Positions 904-18,434 of a stretch of DNA of 64,000 nucleotides are shown here, piece by piece. Origin of the DNA: an uncultured candidate division Zixibacteria bacterium (lineage in GTDB: Bacteria > Zixibacteria > MSB-5A5 > GN15 > FEB-12); contig CAWDXE010000007.1 of the NCBI GenBank assembly GCA_963806185.1, positions 1 through 64,000 of the forward strand. The letters are read 5' to 3'. The position numbers and the translations under genes are program-made. Below the pieces are notes generated by a model. It saw only the letters and a list, made by a program, of their open reading frames with translations. It made no database searches and had not been told where the DNA came from. Position 1 is the first letter of the stretch, and each line of letters starts with the position of its first letter.

Positions 904-2770
904 ATGCTCGTGCTCGGTGCAGTGGCGGTGGCCAGTGGCTGCACGCGGCACGAGACAGTGACCTCGCCGCAGGATCTCCGCCTGCACACGATCGAGGCCC
1001 CGGCCGGGACCGACGTCGCCGAGTACACGATGGCCGCGCGGCTCGATGGCTCGCACCGGGTGATCGACGGCGACCGAGCACATCGTCTGGCGCAATCGCT
1101 CGCGATCGCCCGGCTGACGTGCTGTGGTGGCACTTGTACATGAACGCGTTCGACGCACCCGACACGCTGTTCATGCGAACGGGTGGCGCATCCGGTCATC
1201 GCGGTCACTCGCCACGGGATGCGCGGACGCATCGATGTGACGGCGCTTCGCTCGTCGAGCGGCGAGGATCTGCTCGCATCGAGTACCAACGACGAGAACG
1301 TCCCGCGCGACCGCACGCAGCTGCGCACGCCGTTTCCGCGCGCAGTGATGCCGGGCGAGACCATTGCGCTGGACGTACGTTTCGAACGACGCTCCCCGCG
1401 ACGTTCGCGCGCACTGGCTACTTCGATGACTTCACATTTGCCGGACAGTGGTTCCCCAAACTCGCCGTGCTCGAATCCGACGGCACCTGGTCGCACTTTC
1501 CGTTCCACGCGAACAGCGAGTTCTACGCGGACTTCGCGCGGTACGACGTCACGCTGACCGTGCCGCGGGGCGAGCGTGTCGGTGCGTGCGGCATCGAGAG
1601 TCGATCCCTCACGGCAAAGTGGCGATGGCGATCGACACCATTTCGTCGCCGAGCACACGCACGATTTCGCGTGGACCGCGTGGGCTTCGTTCCAGGAGAC
1701 GTGGCGCACGATCGATGGCATCGCGGTCCGCGTGCTCGCTCCGCCCGGCGAATCCGGTGTCGTGACACGATCGCTGGCATCGCTCGAGCGCGCGATTCCG
1801 GCATTCGCTGCACGCTACGGACGCTATCCGTACCCGCAGCTCACCGTGATCATTCCACCGCGCGGCGCCGGCGGTGTCGGCGGCATGGAATACCCGACGC
1901 TGATCACCACGGAGGGCTTGTGGTTCCTCCCGTCGAGCGTGCACGCCATCGAGTGGGTGACGATCCACGAGTTCGCACACCAGTACTTCTACGGTCTGTT
2001 CGCGAGCAACGAGTGGGCCTGGCCGTTTCTCGACGAAGGCCTGGCGGAATACACCACCGGGCGCGTCATGACCGACTGGTTCGGCTCCGGCTACGAACTG
2101 TTCGACGGGCTGGGGCTCGGGCTCGGCTACCACGCGTTCGAGGGCGGACTGGCGGGGAGCATCGACGACGCGCTGCCGGCCGCGGGCGGATCGTCGTCGT
2201 TTCCGTCGTATCGAGCGTACGGCGATCATGTGTATCGGCGCACGGCCGCTGCACTCGAGAGCGCGGAGCTGTTGTTCGGGCGCGATCGTCTCGACCGCGG
2301 ATTGCAGGCCTACGCGGTCGCCGCTCGCTTCGCGCACCCGACACCCGACGTGCTGTTCGATGCACTGCAATCGGCGGATCCGGCGATGAGCGGATTCGTG
2401 CGCCGCGCACTCGTCGGCCCTGGATCGCTCGACGACGCGATCACCTCGGTGCGCGTCGCGTCGCCCCGACGGCACCTGGACGACGTCGGTGCACACGCCA
2501 CACGACGGTCCTGGACGCGCTGCGACAGCTCGGGGTTGCCTTCGCGGACGGCAGTCGCCAGCGATCTCCGCTCGTCCCGGCGACCGAGCGCTGGACCTCG
2601 CCTCGGCGCTCCCGCTCGGTCCGCACCGCTCGATCCCGACGCTGCGTTCCGTGCGATCAGGACCCACTCGACGACGCACGCCTCGCGACCGGTGCGGCCC
2701 GCCCGCCCTCGAACTTCGTGTCCCGCACCTGCCTTCTGGCTCGAGGCGCTCCTCCGCCTGGTGGGCCCGT
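904..2770 (+). CDS. M1 family zinc aminopeptidase, multiply frameshifted
   Basis: Motifs split over three frames: WHLYMNAF, QWFPKLAV, EFYADF, HDFAW, GGMEYP, HEFAH-x18-E (DEGL); ends approximate. Confidence 0.75.
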
Positions 2771-2970
2771 CACGGGCGCTGCGTTCTGCTCTGCGCCGCG
2801 ACGCGCCGCTCGTCCTCGCGCTCGTCGTCGCCGAACTCGCGCTCGGGTGGTGCTCTCGCACGTCCTCGTGTCGGGGGTCGCCGAGCTCGTCGCCCCGCAC
2901 CCCGACGGCGTGCGTGCGCTGTTCGCGGACGGCTCGCGCGGGATCTTCGACGTCGTGTCGAACGGATCAC
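2770..2970 (+). pseudogene. 5' fragment of a membrane protein gene, truncated at the composition junction
   Basis: Hydrophobic LVLALVVAELALG..VLSHVLVSGVAELV..ALFADG peptide across two frames, cut off at ~2970. Confidence 0.35.
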
Positions 2971-2974
2971 CCAC

Positions 2975-4202
2975 ACCATGTCCGCGCGGAATCGTCTGCT
3001 GGCTCAAATTGTATAGACGGTCGATGACGATCACGAGAAAGCTGCCCAAAAAGAGCAGGGGGATACTTCCTCGTCCATACTTCTCCCAGATATAGAAAGC
3101 GCAAAACACACCGGCGAAAACGAGCACCATCTCGAATGAAAACTGCGGCCACTGCGTGGCAAGATTGAGATGTCGGGCCGCCAGCCAGGCATGCTGTGCC
3201 GACTCCGACCCGTATCGATAGATCGCGCGCAACAGCGGCAGCCAGTAGACGGCACTGACGATGGCGACACCACCGGCAATTATCAGTTTGTGTCGCAGGT
3301 CACGCCAGACGAACCGGAGAGACTTGGTCTGCACATACCTGGTGATCAAGATGAACGGCGTGACGATGAATCCAACGAAGAACCAGTAATAATAGGTAAT
3401 GAACAGAATTCCGCCAATCAGTGAACCGACAACGTAATCCTTCACCGAGAGCGGATGAGTGGTCGGCGTCCACCCTCGTTCCACGTAGTACAGCCACCAG
3501 GGGATGAACAGCCCCGCCACTACGGACTCGTAAAAGAGTGAGTCCATATATTTGTATGCGAAGAACAGCGTGACTACTACGATCGCCGCGCTCATCTTCG
3601 GCGAGACCAGCCGCCGCCACGAAAAGTACAACAGCCACGGGTAGACGAGGAAGATGAGGTAGTACCCCCACTTGACCGTCTGATATGCCTCGATGCCAAT
3701 CAGCTTCGCGTATAAGGCCGTGATGGCGAACCAGCCGGGAGGATAGAAGCTGGGCAAGTCTTTCAGATACCAGTCCTGGAAGAACGAACCGTAGGCCATC
3801 ATTTTGCAGACTTCGGCCAGCCGGTTGCCGTTGTCGCCCCAGATGCTGTTCATGCCATATTCGCTGGCTCGGAATAGGATCCCGTACAGAACGAGGAAGT
3901 AGGCCGAGACGCCGAACACCGCCCAGAATGGTGCCAGGCGCGTCTTTCGCACCGCATACAGTACTGTAACCGTGACCGCCAGCCAGCCCAATGACCAGAG
4001 CCGCGCTCTCACCATGTCCTGGAAGTGATCGTCCGAACCGAACCAGTACCCGACCGCCTGACGGTATAACTCAGCGCCGAAATAGGCGAGCAGCAGCTAC
4101 CGCCGGCGCAATGACCAGCCACTCCCAATACCGAATGCCGGTGCTGCGCAATACTTCGTTCTTGGCTCGCTCGGAAGACGGTTTTCGATTTGCTGTTGCC
4201 AT
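2975..4202 (-). CDS. AftA-like (arabinofuranosyltransferase N-terminal-type) GT-C membrane glycosyltransferase, 3'-truncated, one 5' frameshift
   Basis: IWGDNGNR...DWYLKDLPSFYPPGWF resembles the AftA 'D..R...LPPFYPPGWF' region; many TM helices; ATG at 4202, frame change near 4095-4100; C-terminus runs into the high-GC segment. Confidence 0.6.
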
Positions 4203-4537: not shown

Positions 4538-4568
4538 AGGGCCCGCGTAAAGCGGACAGACAGCAGTT

Positions 4569-4652
4569 GCCGAAGTGGTGAAATTGGTAGACGCGCTGCG
4601 TTCAGGGCGCAGTACTCGCAAGGGTGTGGGGGTTCGAGTCCCCCCTTCGGCA
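4569..4652 (+). tRNA. tRNA-Leu(CAG), CCA not encoded at this copy
   Basis: GCCGAAG acceptor pairs with CTTCGGC-A; D-loop TGGTAGAC; anticodon arm CTGCG-TT-CAG-GG-CGCAG; long variable arm; GGTTCGAGTCC T-arm. Confidence 0.95.
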
Positions 4653-4899
4653 TTTTCCATGTAACCGATTACCCAACAACCACTTAACACATTATGTTCT
4701 GGTCCCATACTCGTTAGTCAATTTTGTAACCATGTGATTTTCAATAACATACAAATTCACGAAACGTAGAGTTCTAGTGTCCTTATTGTGAAAGTGTGCG
4801 ATCTGCTGGTGCCAGTACTCCCACATGATCGATCAACATCTCATCAATTTTGTGATGCCAGAATGTTAGCCCATGCAGTCGCACAAACTTGTGTCCTCG

Positions 4900-4928
4900 G
4901 TCGGGGGTTCGATTCCCCCCACCTCCAC
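4900..4928 (+). repeat. tmRNA (ssrA) 3'-end fragment, att-like, copy 1
   Basis: gtcgggggttcgattccccccacctccac = T-arm plus acceptor 3' strand typical of tmRNA; no 5' part seen upstream. Confidence 0.7.
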
Positions 4929-5067: not shown

Positions 5068-7563
5068 CTATTTGTCAATGCTCGCCTTGAATTGAGGCGA
5101 TGGTATCACTGGCAAGAGCACGTGCGAAGGCCGGTCCTTGTCATGATAGATTGTCTGTCTTGCGCTGACAAACGCGGTCTCCGTTTCATTGTGCCCACCG
5201 GTGTTGAGATTCCTGGAGAACATCGGGAACGACGCTGATGCAACTTCGACTCTCAGTTTCTCACCCGCAGGAATGGTCACGCCTGTTTGCCACATATCAA
5301 GATGATACTCATAGACTGCGTCGGGCTCTAGGAGTTGCGGTTTTTCGAATGAAGTTCTGTACCTTGCGCGGATGACGCCGTGTACTAGTGGAAAGACTTG
5401 CCCCGTCGAATCGACTTTGGACAGGCGCATGAACCAATCAGTGTCTTTTGCGGATGAAGCTGCAAATAGGACCGCGGATACCGGGCCGGCGAGTGTCAAA
5501 GCTTCGGAGAAAGCAGGGGTTTCGTATACTAAGATGTCGTTCCTAGTCCTGTTTACAGTCGCATAGTTCGCGCGGATCTTAGCTCTCGACTCCTCGGAGG
5601 ATCGTATCTTAGTCGAATCAACGAGCGAATCATCGAGGAATTCTTCCGGGTCTATATAGTAAAGCGGATCGGGCGTCGGATCTCCGGGATCATAGGTAAA
5701 CGTATCGGTCGGAGCACCCGTGGAAAGGTCGGTTGAAAGCACACCATTCCCTTGAGAAGTATTCGCGCTGCCAGAACTACTGAGATAATACTTGGTGAAT
5801 CGTGTTGTCGATAACGGATAGACACTATCCTGCAGCCACTGATTTGTCCCCATCACGAACAGCGAAACAAGCGGTTCTTGGTCAAGGCCGTTGTCCATGC
5901 CCAGCAGCCAATGGTCAAGCCAGCGAGTATACTCAAGATCAAGATCAACAATGGCATTTGGTCCAAAGTCTACTCCGTTGGGGCCCGTCCTCGTTGCCTG
6001 AGCAGAGTGCCCCCACGGTCCGAGTATTAGCTTCTGATTGTCATGCCCGGCAGTTGACATCGCCAAGTAGTTCAATTTCGAACCGATACCGTCTCCATCA
6101 TACCAACCTGATTGATGGAACACCGGCATATCAACATCTTTCAGGTGCTCCAGAAAACTGGCCCTTTGCCAATAGTCATCGTTATCCGGGTGAGCAATCC
6201 AGTCGCGCCAGTACTTGTTCCTCTTACCCAAAACGACTGAATCAAGATCCGACACAGGCAGATGCATCAGAAGTTTTGCGTACTTCTTCTCATTGATATT
6301 TCGCATTGCCTCACCGGTTATGTCTCCCGTAGCATCCTCTTCAAGAATGTTGGCCCACCAGATGGATCCTAACAAGAAGAACGCCCCATATTCATACGGG
6401 ATATTGAAATAGGGATCGGGAGGAGAGACATTGGGGATGATCGTCACCAGGTGTGGAGGGCGTTCTCTCGCCGCCCACCACTGGACCCATCCGACGTATG
6501 ATGCACCTATCATCCCAACCTTGCCGTTTGACCAAGGTTGTGCAGCGAGCCATTCGATAGCGTCATATCCGTCCTTCGGTTCGTCAAAGAACGGCTCCCA
6601 ATTGCCCGGAGACGAAAACCTGCCTCTGCAGTCCTGTACCGCATACACATATCCTCGACGAGCGAAAAACTTTGCCTGAAGTTCGTTCAGCTCCTTCTTA
6701 TAGGGCGTTCGAACGAGGACTATCGGAAACTGCCCTTCGCCCTTGGGGCGATAGATGTCGGTGGCAAGCTTGATCCCATCACGCATCGGCACACCGATGC
6801 CACTATCAACTTCGAAATCGTAGGTCGGCAGCGACATGAGTGAGTCAGCTGCCGGCGGAATGCGCAGGGCCTCATAGCCGTTTCGCACATAAGCCCCACG
6901 CTGTGCTGGTACGTCTCCGTAGCATACTCTGTGCTTCTCGTCAACCCAGAGTGTAACATCCACTCCCGGCAATCCGAGTCTGTACAGAGTGAAGCTCTGG
7001 AATCGGCCCATGATATTCCTGTCCACTACCTGCAATCGCTCTACTGAGACATCTCGTACTGCCTGGGGAATGAGAAAGACCGGAAAGACCTGTTTCCCCC
7101 CTGCGGCCTGATCATAGGCCACCACAATCTGGCTCATTAGCATCGGGGTGAAATTCTCAAAGAGAAGAGTGCTCGGCCTAAGTACAATCGACTGGGTTTG
7201 ACCGAGCGCGGTTACCTTGACGAGAGTATCTTCTCTAACGACCTCAACTGCACCCTGAGGCGTGGTCATACTAATACCTGTCCACAGCCCTAAGGCGTCC
7301 ACACTTATCTGCATCGAAACCGCTACGGTCTGACCAGCGGTCGCCACGGTGTACGCCGATCCAACGGACCCATCCCTTTTCCACTCCGAGTGATTCTGAA
7401 CTAAGACTTCTTCGTTCAGATAAAAGGTATAGCTGGCACTGTCTTCGAAGACAGCCAGAGAGGGAACCGCCGATACAGACCGGGTAGGCGAAGCGAATAC
7501 CAGGGACTCCGGAATCACTGCAGCAACGATCAACATGGCGATTATCGATAAACGACTGTTCAT
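5068..7563 (-). CDS. CocE/NonD family (S15) serine hydrolase with signal peptide and N-terminal extension
   Basis: VPMRDGIKLATDIYRP, RTPY, QDCRGRFSS, nucleophile GASYVG, GWYD, GPWGH, C-terminal FSRNLNTG. Confidence 0.9.
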   Translation of the reverse strand: MNSRLSIIAMLIVAAVIPESLVFASPTRSVSAVPSLAVFEDSASYTFYLNEEVLVQNHSEWKRDGSVGSAYTVATAGQTVAVSMQISVDALGLWTGISMTTPQGAVEVVREDTLVKVTALGQTQSIVLRPSTLLFENFTPMLMSQIVVAYDQAAGGKQVFPVFLIPQAVRDVSVERLQVVDRNIMGRFQSFTLYRLGLPGVDVTLWVDEKHRVCYGDVPAQRGAYVRNGYEALRIPPAADSLMSLPTYDFEVDSGIGVPMRDGIKLATDIYRPKGEGQFPIVLVRTPYKKELNELQAKFFARRGYVYAVQDCRGRFSSPGNWEPFFDEPKDGYDAIEWLAAQPWSNGKVGMIGASYVGWVQWWAARERPPHLVTIIPNVSPPDPYFNIPYEYGAFFLLGSIWWANILEEDATGDITGEAMRNINEKKYAKLLMHLPVSDLDSVVLGKRNKYWRDWIAHPDNDDYWQRASFLEHLKDVDMPVFHQSGWYDGDGIGSKLNYLAMSTAGHDNQKLILGPWGHSAQATRTGPNGVDFGPNAIVDLDLEYTRWLDHWLLGMDNGLDQEPLVSLFVMGTNQWLQDSVYPLSTTRFTKYYLSSSGSANTSQGNGVLSTDLSTGAPTDTFTYDPGDPTPDPLYYIDPEEFLDDSLVDSTKIRSSEESRAKIRANYATVNRTRNDILVYETPAFSEALTLAGPVSAVLFAASSAKDTDWFMRLSKVDSTGQVFPLVHGVIRARYRTSFEKPQLLEPDAVYEYHLDMWQTGVTIPAGEKLRVEVASASFPMFSRNLNTGGHNETETAFVSARQTIYHDKDRPSHVLLPVIPSPQFKASIDK

Positions 7564-7950
7564 GACTTTTTCCCTCATGGTGCTTTTCGAACTTTCATCA
7601 CGATTGAATAGCGCACGAAAAGTTTCGAGCGATCGTCAGTGAAGCCTCTTTCCTAGTGCATTGAAAGAAGTGAAAAATGCCGTGACCAGATTATCAACGC
7701 ACCGTTGCCTGACACCTTCGAAAATAGAATATTCAAACTAATAGCCTCATGCAACAAGTGTCTTTATCGATTTGGTGTCCTCTGCACACGAATTGGCCAG
7801 AGGAGATTAAGCACACCTTCGGAGCGGCGGACCTCATCCCTTCGTCGCTACCGCGAAAAGACATTAGTTAGTCAGAGCAGGTCCCAATCAGAGCTACCTT
7901 CTATGACCGATAATTGTTCTGACATCACGCGAGAATGCACCGGATCGTAA

Positions 7951-8448
7951 CTACCGCAAGGTTGGCATCAACAGTCTCCGGCGTGTATAGGCGATCAGAC
8001 CGCCGGCATCTATAATTGCCTGTCGCGCCGGCGGCAACGGCTCCGTCATAAATCCCTTTCCGGTGGTGACGTTAATAATCTTGCCTGGGATAATCTCGAG
8101 CTCGTCTCCTTCACTCGCCTCTATGGTCGGACAGATTACGACGTTCAGACCAAGGTTAATCGCATTCTGCAGGAAGATGCGTGCTATGCTCTTGGCCACG
8201 ACTGTCAACTCGTGTCCACGAATTGTGCTTGCCGCCTGCTCGCGGCTGGAACCACAACCGAAATTCTCATCGGCCACGATCACGCTGCCGGCCGGAATCT
8301 CCTTTGCCTTCAGCCTGGCGTTGAATTCCGTACGATCGTTGAAGCAGAACTGTGGCGTTTCGGTCGGTAGGACGGTCGCCATGAACCGACCGGGGTAGAT
8401 ATCATCGGTGCTGACATCTTTACCGAGTTTCAGTACGGCTTTGGCCAT
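7951..8448 (-). CDS. LeuD-like (isopropylmalate/homoaconitate hydratase) small subunit
   Basis: STDDIYPG, NFGCGSSRE, ARIFLQNAINLG, AGGL. Confidence 0.9.
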   Translation of the reverse strand: MAKAVLKLGKDVSTDDIYPGRFMATVLPTETPQFCFNDRTEFNARLKAKEIPAGSVIVADENFGCGSSREQAASTIRGHELTVVAKSIARIFLQNAINLGLNVVICPTIEASEGDELEIIPGKIINVTTGKGFMTEPLPPARQAIIDAGGLIAYTRRRLLMPTLR

Positions 8449-8449
8449 G

Positions 8450-9742
8450 TTATCGTCCTCCTGCGCGTGGATCGGTGATGACGCCGGTAATGGCGCTGGC
8501 GGCCGCGACGGCCGGACTGCAGAGATAGACTTCGGACTTCGGATTTCCCATACGGCCTTTGAAATTGCGGTTGGTAGTCGCTAACGCTACCTCTTCATCG
8601 CCCAACGCCCCCTGGTGCACACCAAGACATGGCCCGCAGCCGGGATTCATCACCACCGCGCCGGCCTTGATCAGCTCTTCGATATATCCTGCCTGCAATG
8701 CCTGTGCGTAAACGCGGCTCGAAGCGGGGAAGACGATCATGCGTGTGCTATTCGCGACCTTCTTCCTCTTGATGATCTTGGTCGCGATCTCAAGATCATC
8801 GAGGCGGCCATTAGTGCAACTTCCGATAACGATCTGGTGAACTGGCTTGCCGGCAACTGCACCGACCGGTTTGACATTGTCAACCGTGTGTGGACAGGCG
8901 ATCTGCGGCTCTAACGCTGAGACATCGATCTTGACAACTCTTTCATAGACCGCATCCGGATCAGGAAGCACACGGTTAATCGGATCGGTTACGCCAGCTT
9001 CCTGCCTGAGATACCGTTCGGTTTCGTCGTCAGCCGGAACAATACCGCTCGTGGCTCCTGCTTCAACGCTCATATTGCAGATGACGAGGCGACCGCTTGT
9101 CGACATCGCCTTGATGGTTTCGCCGTGAAACTCCAGCACACGGAAGTTCGCGCCCTGAGCGGTCAGAACGCCGATCAGATGCAGGATCAGATCCTTGGGG
9201 CCGACATAGTCGGCGAACTTGCCGGTTACAATCACCTTGATCGTCGGTGGTACTTCAATATTCAGCGCCACGCCGAGCGTCCAGACTGAAGCCATTTCAG
9301 TAGCGCCAATTCCGAAAGAGAATGCTCCGAGCGCACCATGACTCGTCGTGTGGCTGTCAGTTCCAACGACCACTGAGCCCGGTTTGACATAGCCAAATTC
9401 CGGGAGTATCTGGTGGCAGATACCACCGCGGTCGCCACGAATATCATGAAACTTCGCAATCCCGTGATTGCCGACAAAGCCGCGCACGAGTTTCTGATTG
9501 GTCGCAGTCTTGGGGCTTTCTGCCGGCACGCGATGGTCAAAGATGACGGCAATACGTGAGGGATCCCATGGTTTTGGCTCGCGTCCGGTTCCCTGATAGA
9601 TCTCTTTGAACTGGTTTACGACCAGCGCGGCGTTTTCGTGGGACATCGCGAGGTCAACCTCTGGCTCCACGACATCCAACGCCCTGACAGACTTCGAACC
9701 TACTGCCCGGGCCAGGATCTTTTCGACAACAGTCATTCCCAT
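8450..9742 (-). CDS. LeuC-like aconitase family large subunit
   Basis: FDH, GICHQ, GTDSHT, GSCTNGR, GCGPCLG, TNRNFKGRMG. Confidence 0.92.
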   Translation of the reverse strand: MGMTVVEKILARAVGSKSVRALDVVEPEVDLAMSHENAALVVNQFKEIYQGTGREPKPWDPSRIAVIFDHRVPAESPKTATNQKLVRGFVGNHGIAKFHDIRGDRGGICHQILPEFGYVKPGSVVVGTDSHTTSHGALGAFSFGIGATEMASVWTLGVALNIEVPPTIKVIVTGKFADYVGPKDLILHLIGVLTAQGANFRVLEFHGETIKAMSTSGRLVICNMSVEAGATSGIVPADDETERYLRQEAGVTDPINRVLPDPDAVYERVVKIDVSALEPQIACPHTVDNVKPVGAVAGKPVHQIVIGSCTNGRLDDLEIATKIIKRKKVANSTRMIVFPASSRVYAQALQAGYIEELIKAGAVVMNPGCGPCLGVHQGALGDEEVALATTNRNFKGRMGNPKSEVYLCSPAVAAASAITGVITDPRAGGR

Positions 9743-9764
9743 ATGTATCCTCACACTCTGGTGA

Positions 9765-10970
9765 TCAGATCACCGCTTTCTGTTTCAACTCATCAAGCTG
9801 CACCTTGGTGTAGCCGAGCCGCCCCAGGATCTCGACATTGTGCTGTCCCAATGTCGGTGGCGGGGTTTCGACAGCGGCCTCCGACTGGTTAAAGAGCGCC
9901 GTCAGTCCAAACACCTCAATCTCGCCGATATCCGGCACGTTGATCTTCTGGAGCGTCCCGCGGTGCGCAATCTGGGGTTGACACAGCGCCTGGCGAAGAC
10001 TCAGAATCTCGCCACTTGGTACGTCACGTTGATTCAGCACTTCAACCCAATAGCTGGTCGGCTTGGTCGTCAACTGTGCTTCGAGTAGCGGGGTCAGCTC
10101 CTTGCGGTTTTTCTTTCGCGTGTCCCGCTCTTGGAAACGTGCGTCAGTTTTCAGTTCCGGCAGACCGACGACGTCGCAAACCGCCTCCCATTGCTCCTGC
10201 TTATTGGCCGCGATATTGATGTGACCATCGAGAGTCTTGAACGTGCCGCTCGGTGCAGCGGTGAAATTGTCATTCCCCATCACCGGTGGTTCCTGCCCAC
10301 CTATGAGAAAGTTAGCCGCGACCCAGCCCATAAGCGGCATGATCGAGTCAAGCAGTGCGACATCAATATGCTGCCCCTCACCTGTCCGCTGACAATGATA
10401 GAGTCCGGCCATCACGGCAAACGCAGCGTTGAGTCCGCCGACCGTGTCGCACACCGGAAAGCCAGCGCGCAGCGGTGTCAGTCGCTCGTCGCCGTTAATT
10501 GCCATCTCGCCGGACAGTCCCTGTATAATCTGGTCATATGCCGGCCGTTCAGCGTCCGGACCTGTTTGACCGAAACCCGAAATGCTGCAGTACACGATTC
10601 TGGGATTGATCTCGCGCAGAACGCCGTAGCCTAGCCCGAGGCGGTCCATGACGCCGGGTCGGAAATTCTCGATCACTACATCGGCGTCCTTTACCAGCCG
10701 CTTGAATATCTCCTTCCCTTCTGGGCTTTTGGTGTTGAGCGTGACCGATTTCTTATTGCAGTTCTGAGCCAAAAAGCTGGTTCCCATGAGGCGTTTGTTG
10801 TAATCGGGGACAATGCCAAGCTTGCGCGCCAAGTCACCGTCTTTGGGATTTTCAATTTTGATAACCTCGGCGCCTAACAGCGCCAAGTGGAGTGTGGCGA
10901 ACGGACCGGAAAGCACGTTGGTGAGGTCGAGAACCTTGATACCGTCGAGTATTCGCGTGTTGTTTCTCAT
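9765..10970 (-). CDS. CaiB/BaiF family III CoA transferase
   Basis: LDGIKVLDL, GAEVIKIE, ENFRPG, SISGFGQTGP, PVCD catalytic Asp region, PPPTLGQH. Confidence 0.92.
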   Translation of the reverse strand: MRNNTRILDGIKVLDLTNVLSGPFATLHLALLGAEVIKIENPKDGDLARKLGIVPDYNKRLMGTSFLAQNCNKKSVTLNTKSPEGKEIFKRLVKDADVVIENFRPGVMDRLGLGYGVLREINPRIVYCSISGFGQTGPDAERPAYDQIIQGLSGEMAINGDERLTPLRAGFPVCDTVGGLNAAFAVMAGLYHCQRTGEGQHIDVALLDSIMPLMGWVAANFLIGGQEPPVMGNDNFTAAPSGTFKTLDGHINIAANKQEQWEAVCDVVGLPELKTDARFQERDTRKKNRKELTPLLEAQLTTKPTSYWVEVLNQRDVPSGEILSLRQALCQPQIAHRGTLQKINVPDIGEIEVFGLTALFNQSEAAVETPPPTLGQHNVEILGRLGYTKVQLDELKQKAVI

Positions 10971-10982
10971 GCTACATCCACC

Positions 10983-11879
10983 TTAATAGGAAAGAAAGCC
11001 TGACTTGTGGACCCGGCCGGGCATCTCCCGTCCGAAGTAGACGGCGACATCTCGCGCAACAGCAACGAGTGCGGACAGATCGATTCCCTTGCGCAAGCCG
11101 GAGCGCCCCAGGGCATGCACAAGGTCTTCAGTGGCGACGTTACCCGCGGCCACTTTGGTGAACGGACATCCGCCTAAGCCCGCGAAGGAAGTTTCGAAAC
11201 TCACCACCCCCGATTCAAGCGCTGCAAAGACGTTGGCCATACCGAGACCGTACGTGTCGTGGAAGTGGCAGGTGCAGTAGATATCGGGCGCAAGGCGGCG
11301 GATATCGCCGAATAACTTCCGCACCTGATCAGGATGGGCATGACCGGCGGTATCGGCCAGACTAATGTTGGTGAGTCCTGCCTCAAGATAAGTGCGGACC
11401 ATGGTCAGGACGCGCTCGCGGGGGATCGGTCCTTCGAATCCACAGCCGAAAGCACTCTGTACCGAAACCTGGACAATGGTACCAGCGGTCATGGCTTCTT
11501 TCGCGATGGCTACAATCCGGCCCAGAGCTTCGTCGGTCCCCGTGCCAGTGTTCTTCCTGCTGTGCGTCTCGGATGCTGATACGCCAAGGCAAAACATTTG
11601 GACGCCGCAAGCCAAACCGCGCTCGAGTCCTTTTTCATTAAGGACGAGCCCAGAGAAGATCGCACGGTGTTTCTCGTTTCTGAGCGCCAGAAACAACTCA
11701 TCGGTGTCGGCCATTTGCGGCATTTTTTCTCTATGAACAAATGAGCCAACCTGGATGATATCAACGCCGGTAGCAGCAAGAGCACGAATCCACTCGAGTT
11801 TCTTATCGGTCGGGACCGTTTGCCTTTCGGCCTGCAGGCCATCCCGAGGGCCGACTTCATGAACGATAATCTTCGACAT
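10983..11879 (-). CDS. HMG-CoA lyase-like (DRE-TIM) acyl-CoA lyase
   Basis: EVGPRDGLQ, LADT, HFHDT, GLGGCPF, GNVATEDLV. Confidence 0.9.
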   Translation of the reverse strand: MSKIIVHEVGPRDGLQAERQTVPTDKKLEWIRALAATGVDIIQVGSFVHREKMPQMADTDELFLALRNEKHRAIFSGLVLNEKGLERGLACGVQMFCLGVSASETHSRKNTGTGTDEALGRIVAIAKEAMTAGTIVQVSVQSAFGCGFEGPIPRERVLTMVRTYLEAGLTNISLADTAGHAHPDQVRKLFGDIRRLAPDIYCTCHFHDTYGLGMANVFAALESGVVSFETSFAGLGGCPFTKVAAGNVATEDLVHALGRSGLRKGIDLSALVAVARDVAVYFGREMPGRVHKSGFLSY

Positions 11880-11896
11880 TGCCGGATCCTCGTGCA

Positions 11897-13015
11897 TTAT
11901 AATTTCCGAGCGATGGCTTCGCCCATCTCCAGGGTCGTCGCGCTGCCGCCCATGTCGTAGGTTCGCACCTTGCCTTCAGAGATGACTGCTGCAACAGCTT
12001 TTTCCAGTCTGACGGCCTTATCCGTTTCACACAGCCATGCGAGCATCATCTTGGCGGCCAGAATCGTAGCGATAGGATTCACTTTGTACTGGCCGGCGTA
12101 CTTGGGCGCACTTCCGTGTGTTGGTTCGAACACCGCAAGCTTGTCACCAATGTTGCCCGAGCAGCCGAAGCCAAGTCCGCCCACCATTTGAGCGGCGAGG
12201 TCACTGACTATGTCGCCAAACATATTCGTGGCCACGAGTACCCCGTAGTTTTTCGGGTTCTTGAGGAGCCACATGCAGATCGCATCAATGTTGGCATCAT
12301 CCATCTGGATGCCGGGGTAATCTCTCGCGACGCGCTTGCCCGTCTCAAGAAACATCCCTTCAGTGGCGCGCACTACGTTCGCCTTGTGAATCACCGTGAC
12401 TTTTGGATAGCCGAACTCTTTAGCGTACTGAAAAGCGGCACGGATGATCCTCTCGCAACCCATTTTGCTATTGATTTTGCACGTGATAGCATAATCGCTA
12501 TTGGGCATTTTCGCGAAATGGGCAAACGGCTTGCTAAGTTTCGACAATGTGGCAACTAGTTCGTCAGGAACCGTGGCAAACTCAACGCCTGCGTACAGAT
12601 CTTCGGTGTTCTCACGAAATACCACTAGGTCAATTCCCTCTTTGTAGTTGAGAGGATTGCCCGGATAGGCCCGGCAGGGGCGCAGGCAGGTATAGAGATC
12701 GAACATTTGGCGCATACGCACGATAGGGCTTCGGTACACCAGACCTTTGCCCTTCAGTTCAGAGTCAAGCTCACTCTCAGCCTCCTTGACGGGTTTCGAG
12801 GTGATGGCGCCGAACAGGGCAGCATCACTTTGCTTCAGTAGGCTGACGGTGCGATCGGGGAAAGCATCGCCTTCCTTGCACCAAAATTCCCAACCGATAT
12901 CGCCATGGGGGTAGGTGGCGTCGAACTTGAGGGCGTCGAGGCAGATCTTGGCCGCCTCGAGTACTTCGACTCCTACCCCATCACCAGGTAACCATGCGAT
13001 TCTGTGCGTACTCAT
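11897..13015 (-). CDS. isocitrate/isopropylmalate family decarboxylating dehydrogenase (homoisocitrate DH-like)
   Basis: PGDGVGVEV, RENTEDLY, HKANV, NMFGDIVSD, FEPTHGSAP; YRSPIVRMR resembles the HICDH-type segment. Confidence 0.88.
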   Translation of the reverse strand: MSTHRIAWLPGDGVGVEVLEAAKICLDALKFDATYPHGDIGWEFWCKEGDAFPDRTVSLLKQSDAALFGAITSKPVKEAESELDSELKGKGLVYRSPIVRMRQMFDLYTCLRPCRAYPGNPLNYKEGIDLVVFRENTEDLYAGVEFATVPDELVATLSKLSKPFAHFAKMPNSDYAITCKINSKMGCERIIRAAFQYAKEFGYPKVTVIHKANVVRATEGMFLETGKRVARDYPGIQMDDANIDAICMWLLKNPKNYGVLVATNMFGDIVSDLAAQMVGGLGFGCSGNIGDKLAVFEPTHGSAPKYAGQYKVNPIATILAAKMMLAWLCETDKAVRLEKAVAAVISEGKVRTYDMGGSATTLEMGEAIARKL

Positions 13016-13086: not shown

Positions 13087-13109
13087 GTTCATGCCATTTA
13101 GGAATGAAC
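13087..13109. promoter_or_regulatory. LysR recognition box (GTTCAT-N11-ATGAAC)
   Basis: Inverted repeat with T-N11-A core in the divergent intergenic region; second TCAT-N11-ATGA at 13223-13241. Confidence 0.6.
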
Positions 13110-13237: not shown

Positions 13238-14149
13238 ATGACTTCTGGTCGAATTCTACCATCACTAATGTCGCTTCAGTGCTTTGATGCCGCTGTGCGT
13301 CACATGAGCTTTACCAGAGCGGCACGCGAGTTGAACGTCACTCAGAGCGCGGTGAGTCGGCAAGTTCGGCACTTAGAGGAATATGTTGGCCGGCCGTTGT
13401 TTCAGCGCCACAAACAACGGCTGGTCTTGACCGAGGCGGGAGAGGCATATGCACGTTCGATTCGTGAGCTTCTCGACAGAGCCGAAGCGGCAACCCTTCA
13501 GGTAATGGCCTACGGTAGTGGGGGGGGAACGCTAACCATTGCACTACTGCCTACCTTTGGATCGCGCTGGCTCGTCCCTCGTCTCGGCGACTTCACGGCT
13601 CGCTATCCGGACATACAGCTAAACTTAATGACGCAGGTGAAGCCGTTTGATTTTGCAGGAAGTGATATGGATGTAGCGATTCACTTTGGCATTGACAGCT
13701 GGCCGGGTGGGGACTGTCATAGGCTCATGGGCGAAACGATCGTCCCTGTGGCAGCACCGTCGCTCCTAGCAGGACGGCCGGAACTAGTCAGTCCCGAAGA
13801 CATTGGTCGTTTCACTCTCTTGCAGCATGTCACCCGACCACGGGCCTGGCAGGAATGGTTGTGCGATTGTGGAGTGACGAAAGTCGACGGGAGATTGGGA
13901 CCGCGATTTGAGCAGTTTCAGATGGTCATTCAAGCCGCGATTGCTGGCCTTGGATTGGCGGTATTGCCATTGTTCCTAATTCGCGAGGAACTCGCGAGTG
14001 GTCAGTTGATTGTAGCTATTGATCACCCGGTGACGAGTGAGCATGCGTACTACCTGGTTCACCCAGAATCTAAAGCAGATCTTCGGCGCGTTGTCGTGTT
14101 TCGTGATTGGTTGCTCGCCCAATGCGCATCGCAGAAAACGGACAAATAG
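13238..14149 (+). CDS. LysR family regulator, GcvA/GcdR-like
   Basis: SFTRAARELNVTQSAVSRQV HTH; LPTFGSRWLVPRL; LLQHVTRPRAW; GPRFE. Confidence 0.9.
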   Translation: MTSGRILPSLMSLQCFDAAVRHMSFTRAARELNVTQSAVSRQVRHLEEYVGRPLFQRHKQRLVLTEAGEAYARSIRELLDRAEAATLQVMAYGSGGGTLTIALLPTFGSRWLVPRLGDFTARYPDIQLNLMTQVKPFDFAGSDMDVAIHFGIDSWPGGDCHRLMGETIVPVAAPSLLAGRPELVSPEDIGRFTLLQHVTRPRAWQEWLCDCGVTKVDGRLGPRFEQFQMVIQAAIAGLGLAVLPLFLIREELASGQLIVAIDHPVTSEHAYYLVHPESKADLRRVVVFRDWLLAQCASQKTDK

Positions 14150-14452: not shown

Positions 14453-15391
14453 CTACTTCGCAGTCCTGCCACCTCCTCTAGGCAACGGTTCTTTTCGAAA
14501 TATCAGCGTTCTGGCCGTGTTGCAGATCGCTACGACGGCAGGATGCTTGATGCGGCGATCGACGGTTACTGCGTACAGACGCTCCCGCACGTCCGTAATG
14601 GTGCCCACTGCGCGCACCTGGTATTGACGCTCTATCTCGGTTGCGATGACCGACATTGCCGGGAAGATGCCTACGCCGCGCATGCCGAACACTTTCAAGA
14701 GGGCGCTGTCATCGAATTCACCGACGATATTGGGACGGATTGCCCGGGCATCAAACCACTGCTCAAGCGACCGACGTAAGGAAGTGTTTTCGGCGGGAAG
14801 TAGCATAGGTGCGCCACTCAACGAATCCGGGAACTTCCTTCGGAGGTCCGCAGCGAGATCCTTCCGACCGAAGAAGGTGATGTCAGATTCTCCTAGCAAG
14901 TGATTGTACGCGTGTACCTTCACATGGGGGCTGGCAGGGGCATCCGACAGGATCACGTCTAACTCGTGCAGGGCAAGGTCAGCGAGCAGTCGTTCCGGTT
15001 TGTCGTCTCGACAGACCAACCGTACTGGCCCGCCAAGCTGAAAAGCCTGACTCAGAACACGTTCTGCTACCAGTTTTGGGATGACATCAGCAATGCCGAC
15101 ATTCACCCGCAGCGACCGTCCGGTTGGCCGATCCTTGAGGGTATCGAGCATCTCTCTACCGAGCCCGAAAATCTCGTCGGCGTATCGGTAGGCAATTCGC
15201 CCTTCTTCGGTAAGGACAAGATTTCGACCACATTTTTCAAAGAGCTGCTGGCCAAGGACCTCCTCCAACACATGTATCTGCTTGCTGACCGTGGATTGTG
15301 CTAATCGTAGTTCAACACAGGCGCGCGCGAGACTGCCCTCTCTCGCCACGAGCCAAAAGTATAGCAGGTGGTGATAATTGACCCATTCCAT
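14453..15391 (-). CDS. nhaR: LysR family transcriptional activator NhaR
   Basis: NYHHLLYFW, VGIADVIPK, EFDDSALLKVFG, RRIKHPAV. Confidence 0.85.
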   Translation of the reverse strand: MEWVNYHHLLYFWLVAREGSLARACVELRLAQSTVSKQIHVLEEVLGQQLFEKCGRNLVLTEEGRIAYRYADEIFGLGREMLDTLKDRPTGRSLRVNVGIADVIPKLVAERVLSQAFQLGGPVRLVCRDDKPERLLADLALHELDVILSDAPASPHVKVHAYNHLLGESDITFFGRKDLAADLRRKFPDSLSGAPMLLPAENTSLRRSLEQWFDARAIRPNIVGEFDDSALLKVFGMRGVGIFPAMSVIATEIERQYQVRAVGTITDVRERLYAVTVDRRIKHPAVVAICNTARTLIFRKEPLPRGGGRTAK

Positions 15392-15503
15392 GTCTTTATA
15401 AATACTTCGATTAGAGCGAAGAGTCAATGACAATTTATCTATGAATCTAAGTACCAGGGAGGACGTAAAATAGGCACGATCGGAATTGTAATGGAGGCAA
15501 GGG

Positions 15504-15926
15504 ATGAGGATTCATGTAGTAGGCCGAACAGTCGAGATCGATGACAACTTACACGGTTTTGTCGAACGCCGCATCCTCTTGGCGCTGGGGCGACTTTCTC
15601 CAGGCATTCACTGTGCCATCGTGCGCCTGCACGATCTAAACGGTCCGCGCGGCGGTATGGATAAGACGTGCCAAATTGAAGTGCGCTTGCGATCTCGTAA
15701 TGGTCTGGTTGTCGAGCATACGGACAGTAATTTGTATGCAGCGATCAGCCGAGCGGCCGACAGGGCCGGGCGAGCCGTTGTACAGACGAAAGAGCGCGCT
15801 CGGCGGCACCGAAGGGACAGGGTCCCGGCCGATACCCGCGAGCATGTAGAAGAAAGACGGGAGAATATGGAAGATTTATGGTACGAACGAGATGTGGAAC
15901 AATCAGGAAAGGAGTACCATCGATGA
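15504..15926 (+). CDS. HPF/RaiA family ribosome-associated protein
   Basis: VRLHDLNGPRGGMDKTC...LYAAISRAADR, typical of HPF-like genes next to nhaR. Confidence 0.8.
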   Translation: MRIHVVGRTVEIDDNLHGFVERRILLALGRLSPGIHCAIVRLHDLNGPRGGMDKTCQIEVRLRSRNGLVVEHTDSNLYAAISRAADRAGRAVVQTKERARRHRRDRVPADTREHVEERRENMEDLWYERDVEQSGKEYHR

Positions 15927-16237
15927 AATGCCCGCGCTGTGAGTCCTCTGTGCTCGCCGAACAGAATCGAGGAGGAATTGCCGTAGACGTCTGTTCGCAA
16001 TGCCGCGGCGTTTGGCTGGATCGGGGAGAGCTGGAAAAACTGATTTCCCAGGCGCAGGCAATCGATGAACAGGCTCAATACGATCGCCCAGATGACTTCG
16101 ATGATGATGACCACAGTCGAAACAAGGGACAGTATCGGCATCACGATGATCGTGAGTCCGGTGATCGTCCGTATGATGCCCAGGGTCGGCCGCGCAAGCG
16201 GCGGTGGTATGAGTCCTTCACTGATATGTTTGATTGA
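15923..16237 (+). CDS. zf-TFIIB zinc-ribbon protein
   Basis: MKCPRC...DVCSQCRGVWLDRGELEKL, acidic/basic tail ending FD; ATGA overlap with upstream gene. Confidence 0.85.
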   Translation: MKCPRCESSVLAEQNRGGIAVDVCSQCRGVWLDRGELEKLISQAQAIDEQAQYDRPDDFDDDDHSRNKGQYRHHDDRESGDRPYDAQGRPRKRRWYESFTDMFD

Positions 16238-16403
16238 CAGAGGTGCGTCCTTGTAGCTAGCTGCCAAACTGGCGTGGACGAGCATTCGCCTCTTGAGGCG
16301 CAGCCCACCATGGGCTGCGCCGCCCAGAACTGTCAGATGGTCAAAAAGGCGCCAACTACGTCTACCTAGAAAAGAGGCGCGGTGGGGCTATTCTCAGTGG
16401 AGG

Positions 16404-16772
16404 ATGATTGAAGTGAAGATAGTGATTCAGCGTCCAGGAGCACCTGTGCAGGACCGCCTTGATTGGTATGCAGAGAAGTTGTGTCTTGGCACCCTCCGGA
16501 CACCTGGGGTGGAATCGGTCACAGTACAATTGGATGTACTGCAAGACCCGGCTACGCTACTCGAGCAATGCGATAATCTCTGTCGCATCCGTGTAGAATT
16601 AGTAGACGGTTGCCACGTTGCGACCGAGGCCGTCGACTCGGATGAACTCATGGCTATGTGTCATGCTGTAGACAGAATAAAATGTGCCTTGATTGAGCGC
16701 CCATCCGGCCTTGTTGAGGTTGACCGAGTTGCTACAGGGTTCGATGAATCTCGAATCGCAGAACACTTATAG
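16404..16772 (+). CDS. divergent second HPF/RaiA-like protein
   Basis: GGAGG RBS; VESVTVQLD...CRIRVEL...AMCHAVDRIK parallels the HPF fold pattern. Confidence 0.45.
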   Translation: MIEVKIVIQRPGAPVQDRLDWYAEKLCLGTLRTPGVESVTVQLDVLQDPATLLEQCDNLCRIRVELVDGCHVATEAVDSDELMAMCHAVDRIKCALIERPSGLVEVDRVATGFDESRIAEHL

Positions 16773-16788
16773 CATCGGAGGCAGTACA

Positions 16789-17949
16789 ATGAAACTGGAA
16801 CAACTGCAACAACACATCCGTTTTCTCGCCTCATTAGAGGAGAGTGAGCAACCGATCGTTTCCTGCTATATCGATTTGACAGCGCCTAGAGATGAACGAC
16901 AGAAGTATCTTGTCAAGCGTATCGACAGCATAGTCCGAACGTGGCCCAACGGTGCGCAGCGTGGGCACATCGTGGATGCCCTAAATTCGGTAGTGCGTCA
17001 AGCAAGCCTGGCTAACGAACCCGAAACCAAAAGTCTGGCCGTGTTTGCTCGCGGGGGCGTCAGCTCATTCTGTCTTCCTATGCGTTTCCCGCTTCCTTTG
17101 CCTACCACCCTTACAGTGGATAGAGTTCCTCATCTGTCACACCTCGTCGTCATGAAGGACCGTTACTATCGTTACGTCGTGCTGGTAACTACCAGTAGGA
17201 GTGCGAAGATCCTTGAAGTAAGTCTGGGTGAGGTTAGCCAGCATATGTCGGTGGAACGACAGGAGCCAGAAGCAAAAGTCGGCCGAGAATGGACGCGCCT
17301 GCATTATCAGAACTATCGTAGCGAAAAGAAAAGGCAGTTTATCAAGGAGAAGATCGCCGTCCTGGAGCGACTCATGGCAGACGAAAGGTACGGTCACCTC
17401 ATTCTGGCAGGTGAATCTGACTATGTTCATGAAGTGCGAAGGGCACTTCCCAAGCACCTGTCGACAAAGCTAATTGACGTGTTATCGCTCTCCAACCCTG
17501 CCGACCGCGAGACAGTTCTCAAGGAAACGCTCGCGGCTTTCATGAAGGCTGAAGAGGACGAGTCGTTGCTAACGGTGGAACGGCTCTTCAACGCCTTTTA
17601 CCGAAACGATCTGGCTGCACTTGGGGCGGAGGATACTTTTAATGCGATGCTCCAGGAACGGGTCGATACACTGGTAATTGAGGCAGATTGCGATCTTGGA
17701 GCAGTGCAAATTTGTAAGCTCTGCCGGTGGGTGTCGATGGCTGAGCCACAGCCTGAGGTATGTGGCGTCTGTGGTTCGCCTGTTTTACACAAGTACGACA
17801 CCCGAGAGGAGCTTATCAGATTGGCGGAGAAGAGACGGTGTCGAATTGAAACCGTGGGCCGATCTGAACAGCTACATCGAGCCGGCGGTGTTGGGTGCTT
17901 CCTTCGCTATGCCCTGATACCGGACAATGTTATGTCGGGAGGCAAATAG
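16789..17949 (+). CDS. bacterial archaeo-eukaryotic release factor (baeRF/eRF1-like) family protein with Zn ribbon
   Basis: SCYIDL, LAVFARG, PHL, LILAGE, RVDTLVI, CKLC...CGVCG, GGVGCFLRY C-terminus. Confidence 0.75.
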   Translation: MKLEQLQQHIRFLASLEESEQPIVSCYIDLTAPRDERQKYLVKRIDSIVRTWPNGAQRGHIVDALNSVVRQASLANEPETKSLAVFARGGVSSFCLPMRFPLPLPTTLTVDRVPHLSHLVVMKDRYYRYVVLVTTSRSAKILEVSLGEVSQHMSVERQEPEAKVGREWTRLHYQNYRSEKKRQFIKEKIAVLERLMADERYGHLILAGESDYVHEVRRALPKHLSTKLIDVLSLSNPADRETVLKETLAAFMKAEEDESLLTVERLFNAFYRNDLAALGAEDTFNAMLQERVDTLVIEADCDLGAVQICKLCRWVSMAEPQPEVCGVCGSPVLHKYDTREELIRLAEKRRCRIETVGRSEQLHRAGGVGCFLRYALIPDNVMSGGK

Positions 17950-18099
17950 TGGAGCCGTAGCGTAGCGATGAACTTTCGCCTATCGTCGCAGGGTTTTGTG
18001 CCCTTGGAGTCGAAGCTGTGATCGATCAAGTGCGGATGGCAATTGAGCCGAGTTGGAATCAATAGTGAGAACGAGCAGAAATATGAAAGGAGACGAGCA

Positions 18100-18345
18100 A
18101 TGTCCGAGGTGAAATCTGCAAAGCGACGCGCTCATCAAGAATCGCGTAGAGCAGCACGGTGTAACGGGGGCGGCGAGATTTCCGCTGAAGAGCGCTATCG
18201 CATGATTGCGGAAGCAGCATACTATCGTGCTGTGAAGCGTGGTTTTGCCGGAGGCGACACAGTTAATGACTGGCTCGAGGCCCAAGCGGAAGTGGATGCC
18301 GAACTGGCCAGTATACAGCGTCAAGGGGAACAAGGCAGTAAGTGA
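18100..18345 (+). CDS. DUF2934 domain protein, copy 1
   Basis: IAEAAYYRAVKRGFAGG...DWLEAQAE. Confidence 0.85.
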   Translation: MSEVKSAKRRAHQESRRAARCNGGGEISAEERYRMIAEAAYYRAVKRGFAGGDTVNDWLEAQAEVDAELASIQRQGEQGSK

Positions 18346-18406
18346 CGATCCTTGAGCATATGCAGAATCTGGCCCTTTCAACGATGGAAGATTCAGCTGC
18401 TACCAT
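18143..18406 (+). repeat. ~260-bp direct repeat (second copy 19618-19881)
   Basis: Colinear similarity covers the DUF2934 CDS and ~60 bp of 3' non-coding DNA. Confidence 0.85.
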
Positions 18407-18434
18407 TTGGTAATGAATATTGGAGGTTAGCGCA

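Follow-up and report, generated by a model that had tools for sequence, protein, structure and literature searches.

The front half of the α-aminoadipate pathway of fungi, Thermus and methanogens employs the same dehydrogenase and isomerase families, with the same predicted intermediates, as a cassette of five genes that we analysed in a stretch of 64,000 nucleotides (hereafter the window) from an uncultured candidate division Zixibacteria bacterium (positions 1 to 64,000 of contig CAWDXE010000007.1, GenBank assembly GCA_963806185.1). The cassette encodes a dehydrogenase (DH), a lyase (LY), a CoA-transferase (CT) and the two subunits of a LeuCD-type isomerase. The α-aminoadipate front half consists of homocitrate synthase, aconitase with homoaconitase or HacAB, and homoisocitrate dehydrogenase; unlike it, the cassette has no synthase but CT and an acyl-CoA lyase instead, its dehydrogenase carries an NADP-type motif, it is linked to lysine-catabolic genes, and LysX was not found in most of its carriers. 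The reductive tricarboxylic acid (TCA) cycle, where citrate is cleaved by citryl-CoA synthetase and citryl-CoA lyase or by ATP-citrate lyase, follows the same logic of reductive carboxylation, isomerisation, CoA activation and retro-Claisen cleavage, and a sister kit of the cassette uses the same ligase and lyase folds; the cassette differs in a predicted substrate one carbon longer, a family III transferase, a DRE-TIM lyase, heterotroph-looking hosts and the lack of an evident cycle. The succinyl-CoA:(R)-citramalate CoA-transferase and (R)-citramalyl-CoA lyase of Chloroflexus aurantiacus, compared by description only, presumably belong to the same two families as CT and LY and share their cleavage face; we take this pair to serve the 3-hydroxypropionate bi-cycle and not to be joined to LeuCD and a dehydrogenase. 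The closest solved structures of LY and CT are 3-hydroxy-3-methylglutaryl-CoA (HMG-CoA) lyase (LiuE/HMGCL) and human succinate-hydroxymethylglutarate CoA-transferase (SUGCT), whose catalytic residues are kept, but the cassette does not lie in a leucine or glutarate gene context. By model scores it also lacks the LeuA/CimA-type synthase and the LeuB of leucine and citramalate elongation. The cassette belongs to neither α-aminoadipate biosynthesis, the leu pathway nor the reductive TCA cycle.

We propose that the cassette is probably a reversed homocitrate route, degrading lysine-derived 2-oxoadipate without O2. DH would add CO2 to 2-oxoadipate with NADPH to form homoisocitrate, LeuCD would isomerise this to (R)-homocitrate, CT would load CoA from succinyl-CoA onto (R)-homocitrate, and LY would cleave homocitryl-CoA to 2-oxoglutarate and acetyl-CoA. 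The net reaction would be 2-oxoadipate + CO2 + NADPH + succinyl-CoA -> 2-oxoglutarate + acetyl-CoA + succinate + NADP+. Were succinyl-CoA remade from 2-oxoglutarate by a 2-oxoacid:ferredoxin oxidoreductase, CO2 would only be cycled and the balance would become 2-oxoadipate + NADPH + CoA + oxidised ferredoxin -> acetyl-CoA + succinate + reduced ferredoxin. The assignment of homoisocitrate and 2-oxoadipate as substrates is strong and that of the cleavage direction moderate, though cleavage is likely once these substrates are granted; use of NADPH is predicted from a motif, and succinyl-CoA is weakly suggested as the CoA donor. The same conversion had been put forward in a preliminary description of this DNA; it remains the best reading, now on the strength of genome context and not of the LeuD motif invoked there.

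The route is described nowhere in the literature searched (mostly without subscription journals, and with supplements not covered), and the term "homocitryl-CoA" occurs in none of the matches listed. Known fates of 2-oxoadipate, according to bioRxiv 2020.01.30.927905, are O2-dependent conversion to 2-oxoglutarate by HglS and oxidation to glutaryl-CoA. The HglS reaction depends on O2 and releases CO2, and the 2-oxoadipate dehydrogenase route is oxidative, whereas the cassette would bind CO2 at the expense of NADPH and conserve two carbons in acetyl-CoA. If the proposal is true, it adds a third fate of 2-oxoadipate, O2-free and CO2-fixing, in protein-degrading bacteria of numerous lineages from sediments, soils and digesters. 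It would also imply at least three new activities (an NADPH-dependent 2-oxoadipate carboxylase, a homocitrate CoA-transferase and a homocitryl-CoA lyase), a 2-oxoacid chain elongation made reversible several times, and a bacterial role for fungal-type homoaconitase. Automatic annotation at present names such genes leuBCD, isocitrate dehydrogenase, HMG-CoA lyase or citryl-CoA lyase, which can yield false calls of leucine synthesis or of the reductive TCA cycle in metagenomes.

Conservation of the cassette and exchange of its modules

The five open reading frames (ORFs) all lie on the minus strand within 7951-13015, in the order DH, LY, CT, LeuC, LeuD, and the gaps between the longest ORFs are of -1, 12, 10 and 1 nt, which bears out the tight, co-oriented packing first reported for them. 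We examined 80 genome loci around close relatives of DH (the best 80 of 592 confirmed) and 80 metagenome loci anchored on CT; neighbours were identified by comparing every called gene with a chosen set of queries by BLAST and by scanning selected genes with hidden Markov models (HMMs). Loci are labelled L### and genomes G###, G000 being the host genome, which is 82% complete. The cluster is conserved as a unit: all five genes occur in the same order in 51 of the genome loci (49 by script, plus L016 and L017 found complete by inspection) and in 40 of the metagenome loci, and many incomplete loci of both sets stop at a contig end. Carriers are, by record titles, Latescibacterota, Fibrobacterota, Gemmatimonadota, Ignavibacteria/Bacteroidota, Chloroflexota, Acidobacteriota, Eisenbacteria and Clostridia. 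The dehydrogenase is also present, at 81%, in a Geothrix isolate. L018 and L046 encode LY and CT as a single fusion protein, and this fusion together with the fixed order of the five genes argues for one pathway rather than unlinked enzymes. A FastTree phylogeny was rooted on the host's own isocitrate dehydrogenase (ICDH), characterised reference enzymes not being included; in this one tree the native DHs of the host's relatives nest among the cassette DHs. The DH of the window shares 84-87% identity with DHs from other phyla but 64% with a stand-alone paralog in its own genome, and it groups with LysR-linked cassettes of other phyla. The cassette therefore moves horizontally.

Parts of the cassette are exchanged for unrelated enzymes. 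A PrpB/isocitrate-lyase-family enzyme replaces LY and CT between DH and LeuC in L050 and L081, which sit on separate branches of the tree and represent independent swaps. In six Thermoanaerobaculia-type loci DH follows succinyl-CoA-ligase-like β and α genes and a citryl-CoA-lyase-like gene. All five genomes with this ligase kit that were searched contain a PrpD-like gene beside a fused aconitase-family gene, which passes the cut-off for fungal homoaconitase (572.7 bits for L109, on a partial sequence). The host has such a kit too, in scattered form: a fungal-type homoaconitase (891.6 bits on TIGR00139, cut-off 529.9), a PrpD-like gene, a citryl-CoA-lyase-like gene, a second ligase and the stand-alone DH (G000 C7:877592-880960, C4:209173-209937, C3:45589-47357 and C4:80744-81862). 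An HD-domain gene accompanies the PrpD/homoaconitase pair both in the host and in L109-L113.

The same association was seen in a profile of 41 related genomes, host included and several of them incomplete. The DH family is present in 32 of these genomes, and the kit genes follow it closely: fungal-type homoaconitase occurs in 30/32 genomes with DH, citryl-CoA-lyase-like genes in 29/32, second succinyl-CoA-ligase-like genes in 27/32 (one of them diverged) and PrpD-like genes in 26/32, compared to 0/9 genomes without DH in each case. Five relatives carry LY-CT-LeuC-LeuD without an adjoined DH of its own. Among the cassette relatives, G030 and G031 have none of the four kit genes, G012 lacks two and G027 lacks one, and G026 is complete; the PrpD-like gene is absent from 4 of 6 cassette genomes versus 2 of 26 others. 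The cassette thus takes over the function of the homoaconitase kit after the same DH. Since the same DH family is gained and lost with the fungal-type homoaconitase kit, and since the cassette replaces this kit in some genomes, homoisocitrate is indicated as the substrate, and the co-occurrence with homoaconitase is the strongest argument for it. DRE-TIM enzymes and LeuCD share (R)-homocitrate geometry, and citrate-synthase-fold lyases take the other epimer, the one on which PrpD acts in the methylcitrate cycle. According to PMC3556520, fungal homoaconitase catalyses only the interconversion of homoaconitate and homoisocitrate, and this restriction explains the PrpD-like partner. For the ligase kit, formation and cleavage of (S)-homocitrate are predicted, with the PrpD-like enzyme being required, and for the isocitrate-lyase-family enzyme of L050 and L081 cleavage of (R)-homocitrate to 2-oxoglutarate and acetate.

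Two loci depart from these arrangements in other ways. L037:9001-11928 holds DH-LeuC-LeuD with neither lyase nor transferase between them, and in the Planctomycetota locus L058:4176-11529 a CitD-CitE fusion and CitF lie near DH and a PrpD-like gene, possibly forming a fourth cleavage kit derived from classical citrate lyase.

The same chemistry could act on a shorter chain. In this alternative 2-oxobutyrate from methionine or threonine would be carboxylated to 3-methylmalate, converted to (R)-citramalate and citramalyl-CoA and cleaved to pyruvate and acetyl-CoA, or isopropylmalate/leucine chemistry would run in reverse. Chloroflexus has a pair of this kind for (R)-citramalate, made up of a transferase and an HMGL-family lyase, and LeuD also fits this option. 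The loop motif TDDIYPG, described initially as homoaconitase-like, is present, but it does not resemble homoaconitase in particular: LeuD lacks the loop arginine of homoaconitase, and it is slightly closer to the isopropylmalate/citramalate isomerase of M. jannaschii (E 2.4e-28) than to homoaconitase (E 1.8e-26), the best PDB matches being 3vba (isopropylmalate/citramalate isomerase) and 2pkp (homoaconitase). In L083 and L089 the upstream genes of the same orientation include a methionine-gamma-lyase-like one and VorB, providing a link to 2-oxobutyrate, and Vor-type oxidoreductase genes stand beside about 14 loci. However, the genomes of L083 and L089 also have a lysine 6-transaminase over cut-off beside an aldehyde dehydrogenase, and close orthologs of the gamma-lyase-like gene were found in only 2 of 5 genomes tested, the host having none (best match 35%). 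Moreover, the partner with which the cassette is interchangeable passes the equivalog cut-off for fungal-type homoaconitase, and a tricarboxylate would be the fitting substrate for the citryl-CoA-lyase/ligase kit. We therefore consider a shorter chain unlikely.

Lysine-catabolic neighbours and direction of the proposed route

Returning to 2-oxoadipate, the link to lysine was seen in the neighbourhoods of the cassette. In L043 a gene for piperideine-6-carboxylate dehydrogenase (Pcd, over cut-off) interrupts the cluster between CT and LeuC, and in L051 one lies directly upstream of the cluster. Upstream, too, L044 and L053 have a lysine 6-transaminase over cut-off, L053 with an Lrp gene as well; a saccharopine-dehydrogenase-family gene adjoins the cluster in L026 and L039, and LKR-like, saccharopine dehydrogenase and aldehyde oxidoreductase genes directly follow LeuD in L155 and L187. 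These lysine-gene neighbours fall into three separate clades of the tree. Five more loci (L029, L030, L034, L175 and L177) are adjoined by a class III aminotransferase or an aldehyde oxidoreductase. At the genome level Pcd passed its cut-off in 5/5 ligase-kit genomes and in 18 of 50 cassette genomes, and G201, the closest cassette relative, has an LKR-SDH-Pcd operon. The saccharopine-dehydrogenase-like gene was set aside as a profile marker, as it occurs in 39 of the 41 relatives and does not discriminate, and lysine 5,6-aminomutase was found in 0/41, in a search that had no positive control match.

Two genomes give a further indication on the dehydrogenase. G046 and G220 have operons with a synthase and LysX but no dehydrogenase, and their Iso_dh inventory comprises only LeuB in a leu context, isocitrate dehydrogenase and this DH family. 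Since the operons lack a homoisocitrate dehydrogenase and no other candidate is available, DH likely fills this role in both genomes. The class of G046 was tried for a co-occurrence test and abandoned, as the lyase was matched in 2 of 151 genomes (G046, and another at 45%), which is too rare.

These findings bear on the direction. Run the other way, the cassette would perform a thioester-conserving synthesis, in which LY would join acetyl-CoA and 2-oxoglutarate, CT would save the CoA as succinyl-CoA, and 2-oxoadipate would lead to lysine or some other C6 compound. In principle every step can be reversed, the three genes after LeuD in L155 and L187 could run towards lysine, and in G046 and G220 DH is the sole candidate for a biosynthetic step. 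Synthesis is nevertheless improbable, because the CoA-free isocitrate-lyase-family enzyme of the swapped loci would have to condense free acetate, because Pcd, an essentially irreversible catabolic enzyme, sits inside the cluster in L043, and because LysX is rare and the lysine-making genomes inspected keep their own synthase. LysX passed its cut-off in 4 of 50 full-cassette genomes, with no match in the other 46, and in 9 of the 56 genomes searched overall; it was found in 0/5 of the host and four relatives. Lys2-type reductase was not part of these searches. A separate synthase stands beside LysX in L204-L207 and L209, and L208 shows no synthase in the 20 kb examined. In genomes with a separate homocitrate synthase, DH and LeuCD are probably used in either direction.

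Thermodynamically, the complete conversion should lie close to equilibrium, and consumption of 2-oxoglutarate would draw it forward. Besides the Vor-type genes mentioned above, Nfn-like genes adjoin four loci, and the host has a Kor-like oxidoreductase, a succinyl-CoA ligase and a glutamate dehydrogenase (named from sequence reading). According to PMC3556520 the isomerase equilibrium lies far towards homocitrate, which also favours cleavage.

More tentatively, these observations may be joined in a broader reading, which we rate as possible although less than probable. The cassette would be one of three unrelated, interchangeable "homocitrate lyase" kits (CT with a DRE-TIM lyase; an ATP ligase with a citrate-synthase-fold lyase and PrpD as epimer switch; and a CoA-free isocitrate-lyase-type enzyme) of a widespread anaerobic lysine pathway that starts with an NADPH-driven carboxylation. 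Together with the neighbouring 2-oxoacid:ferredoxin oxidoreductase, it would act as a CO2-cycling pump that converts NADPH into reduced ferredoxin and at the same time yields acetyl-CoA, and the R and S epimers would separate the making of lysine from its degradation within one cell. We also considered an autotrophic homocitrate cycle but rejected it, as no recurring neighbour indicates regeneration of 2-oxoadipate.

The host genome contains an additional LeuC-like protein. At G000 C5:13743-15359 (L105:4743-6359), 1.7 kb from a saccharopine-dehydrogenase-like gene, a 538-aa protein combines about 120 extra N-terminal residues with a diverged LeuC-like domain and scores below all cut-offs; it is possibly a regulator or a further isomerase.

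The cassette enzymes and their active sites

In LY the catalytic residues R18-D19, H211-x-H213 and GGC244PF align with those of HMG-CoA lyases. The preliminary description had stated that the cluster has no synthase, and the scores agree: LY reaches only 82 and 77 bits on two homocitrate-synthase models (cut-offs 462.9 and 413.55) and 68 of 599 on leuA. Its true start is likely the ATG at 11879, behind a GAGGA site. In CT, D175 is aligned to the catalytic aspartate of human SUGCT and is conserved; the protein is below the cut-off of the succinate-glutarate transferase equivalog (307 of 750). The Fe-S cysteines C313, C373 and C376 of LeuC are conserved, and its true start is likely the ATG at 9742; the hacA_fam subfamily that it matches holds isopropylmalate isomerases as well. 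From these features and their context, LY is predicted to be an (R)-homocitryl-CoA lyase, CT a succinyl-CoA:(R)-homocitrate CoA-transferase and LeuC the large subunit of a homoisocitrate/homocitrate isomerase.

The family assignments of LY and CT could also suit a true HMG-CoA lyase of leucine breakdown, or a branched catabolism of maleate/citraconate-type acids by a hydratase, a D-malate-type dehydrogenase and an alkylmalate transferase and lyase; alkylmaleate pathways of like layout are known from work on Pseudomonas. LY passes the HMG-CoA-lyase subfamily cut-off, CT is closest to the succinate-hydroxymethylglutarate transferase, and the 82%-complete host genome has leucine-degradation genes at C7:232-244 kb with no other HMGL protein, LY being its only PF00682 protein over cut-off. 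On the other hand, DH reaches 211 on the model for tartrate/D-malate-type enzymes (cut-off 470), the loci examined show no recurrent neighbour from a transporter or aromatic-ring gene family, 35 of 40 relatives have no strong lyase match, and the fixed gene order and LY-CT fusion favour a single pathway. The leucine genes stand, in addition, beside an HMG-CoA-synthase/thiolase/DUF35 set (named from sequence reading), an outlet that needs no lyase. Both versions appear very unlikely to us. The region concerned is G000 C7:226443-244325, where HMG-CoA-synthase-, thiolase- and DUF35-like genes adjoin those for leucine degradation, and host leucine may feed a mevalonate route.

The best PDB sequence match of DH is the homoisocitrate dehydrogenase (HICDH) of T. 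thermophilus and its best NCBIfam model is AksF2 (325 bits, below the cut-off of 540); it also stays below cut-off on leuB (196 of 353) and LEU3_arch (312 of 410). Residue conservation was read from 128 sequences. The segment YRSPIVRMR pointed out in the preliminary description is present, and S96-P-I-V-R-x-R102, R112, R134, Y141, D244 and K305 are invariant (128/128), K211 and Y306 being kept in 127/128. At the position of the ICDH substrate motif S-x-N all 128 sequences have S-P-I, the isocitrate-binding asparagine being replaced by isoleucine, whereas the true ICDHs of the same genomes retain S-x-N. The S-P-I-V pattern, presumably the mark of fungal HICDH, would exclude isocitrate. DH has a valine where the T. 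thermophilus HICDH has Arg85. The cofactor loop reads HGSAPKY in 127/128 sequences and the NAD-type HGSAPDI is absent; we take HGSAPKY to be the NADP type, as in E. coli ICDH. Because of this motif NADPH is the predicted reductant, so that the NAD(P)H of the preliminary description is narrowed while its reductive step is kept. DH is thus predicted to be an NADP(H)-dependent homoisocitrate dehydrogenase acting as a 2-oxoadipate carboxylase. A search of the PDB with a 25-residue motif returned no match. In two loci of an Elusimicrobia clade the gene immediately before DH is small and carbonic-anhydrase-like (L177:6393-6791 and L082:8443-8841; weak PF00484, E 6e-05); such a neighbour would suit a CO2-consuming step.

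A citrate version, with reductive carboxylation of 2-oxoglutarate and cleavage of citrate to oxaloacetate and acetyl-CoA as in the reductive TCA cycle, is highly improbable. In its favour, the partners found in swapped loci resemble citryl-CoA lyase (over PRK06224 subfamily cut-offs) and succinyl-CoA ligase, L058 has citrate lyase genes at a distance of 2 kb from DH, and the motif presumed to be NADP-type is like that of E. coli ICDH; but S-x-N is lost in all 128 DH sequences, the host has separate isocitrate dehydrogenases, AcnA and citrate synthase, and citrate would need neither homoaconitase nor PrpD.

Several observations weigh against a reversed homocitrate route for lysine-derived 2-oxoadipate, in addition to those already given for a shorter chain and for leucine breakdown. 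DH, CT and LeuC pass no equivalog cut-off (LeuC reaches 480 on HacA_Meth, below 550), and a fold search with the DH model (predicted local distance difference test, pLDDT, 82) gave Z scores of 40.5 for ICDH, 40.0 for HICDH and 39.0 for isopropylmalate dehydrogenase, which indicates the family fold only. In the metagenome loci L163, L168 and L184, LY and CT stand alone and the other three genes are not there. As the host also holds the alternative kit, its cassette could be redundant or act on another substrate. Fisher values computed on the 41-genome profile are too strong, since kin are not independent. Firm lysine-gene neighbours were found in 8 of the 160 loci only, and the 50 cassette genomes, for which there is no background rate, include 14 with a weaker Pcd match and 18 with none at E 1e-100; the weaker matches are mostly an aldehyde dehydrogenase that adjoins lysine 6-transaminase in G240 and G244. 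Neither Pcd nor lysine 6-transaminase passed its cut-off in the host genome, where the candidates for entry into the route are a saccharopine-dehydrogenase-like gene and a lower-scoring aldehyde dehydrogenase of the class just mentioned, both split by frameshifts like many genes of this assembly. Finally, the reactions of LKR, saccharopine dehydrogenase and aldehyde oxidoreductase can run both ways, and a preference for NADP does not settle the direction.

Regulator and surroundings of the cassette

The coordinates of the cassette genes and of their putative control elements are collected in the table. LysR homologs adjoin DH in L013-L017, L021, L023, L053, L075, L119, L121, L123 and L190, and the LysR gene travels with the LysR-linked branch of the cassette. 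Both half-sites of the T-N11-A box are conserved in at least 13 of 14 aligned intergenic regions, which makes it a candidate LysR operator. Two possible leads on the regulator were rejected: its plasmid homologs are generic GcvA proteins of less than 50% identity and give no clue to the effector, and the GcdR site, as given in PMC6667623, differs from the T-N11-A motif found here. Promoter and terminator scans of the region stayed at chance level.

Table. Positions of the cassette genes and of the adjacent regulatory features in the window
Feature	Position	Strand	Description
DH, β-decarboxylating dehydrogenase	11897..13015	-	372 aa, Iso_dh PF00180
LY, HMG-CoA-lyase-family (DRE-TIM) lyase	10983..11897	-	HMGL-like; PRK05692 277.3 bits, cut-off 246
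CT, family III CoA-transferase	9765..10970	-	CoA_transf_3 PF02515, 414.6 bits
LeuC/HacA-type large subunit	8450..9754	-	hacA_fam 509.8, cut-off 385.7; IPMI_arch over cut-off
LeuD/HacB-type small subunit	7951..8448	-	LEUD_arch 112.6, cut-off 108.95
GcvA-type LysR regulator	13238..14149	+	PRK11139 over cut-off; divergent from DH
Candidate LysR operator	13089..13107	-	T-N11-A box, TCAT/ATGA arms, upstream of DH

After the cassette, a CocE/NonD hydrolase with a long N-terminal extension is encoded at 5068-7578 of the window; it follows the cassette in L016 too (L016:15215), so that this gene order exists in a second genome. A tRNA-Leu(CAG) lies at 4568-4653, and behind it, at about 4790-4900, the sequence resembles the start of a tmRNA at its 5' end, although ARAGORN called none there; given the nearby mobile cassette, this may be an area of integration. 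The first 3100 nucleotides have 62-74% GC, compared to 48-58% afterwards, and contain an M1 peptidase fragment; this high-GC start runs into a truncated membrane glycosyltransferase-like ORF (2657-4015), and the contig start looks chimeric or foreign. On the other side of the cassette, the region 14453-24000 holds genes for an NhaR-like LysR protein, an HPF/RaiA-like protein, baeRF10, a zinc alcohol dehydrogenase, Usp and a P-type ATPase, and a 268-bp duplication of 88% identity is found at 18139-18406 and 19614-19881.

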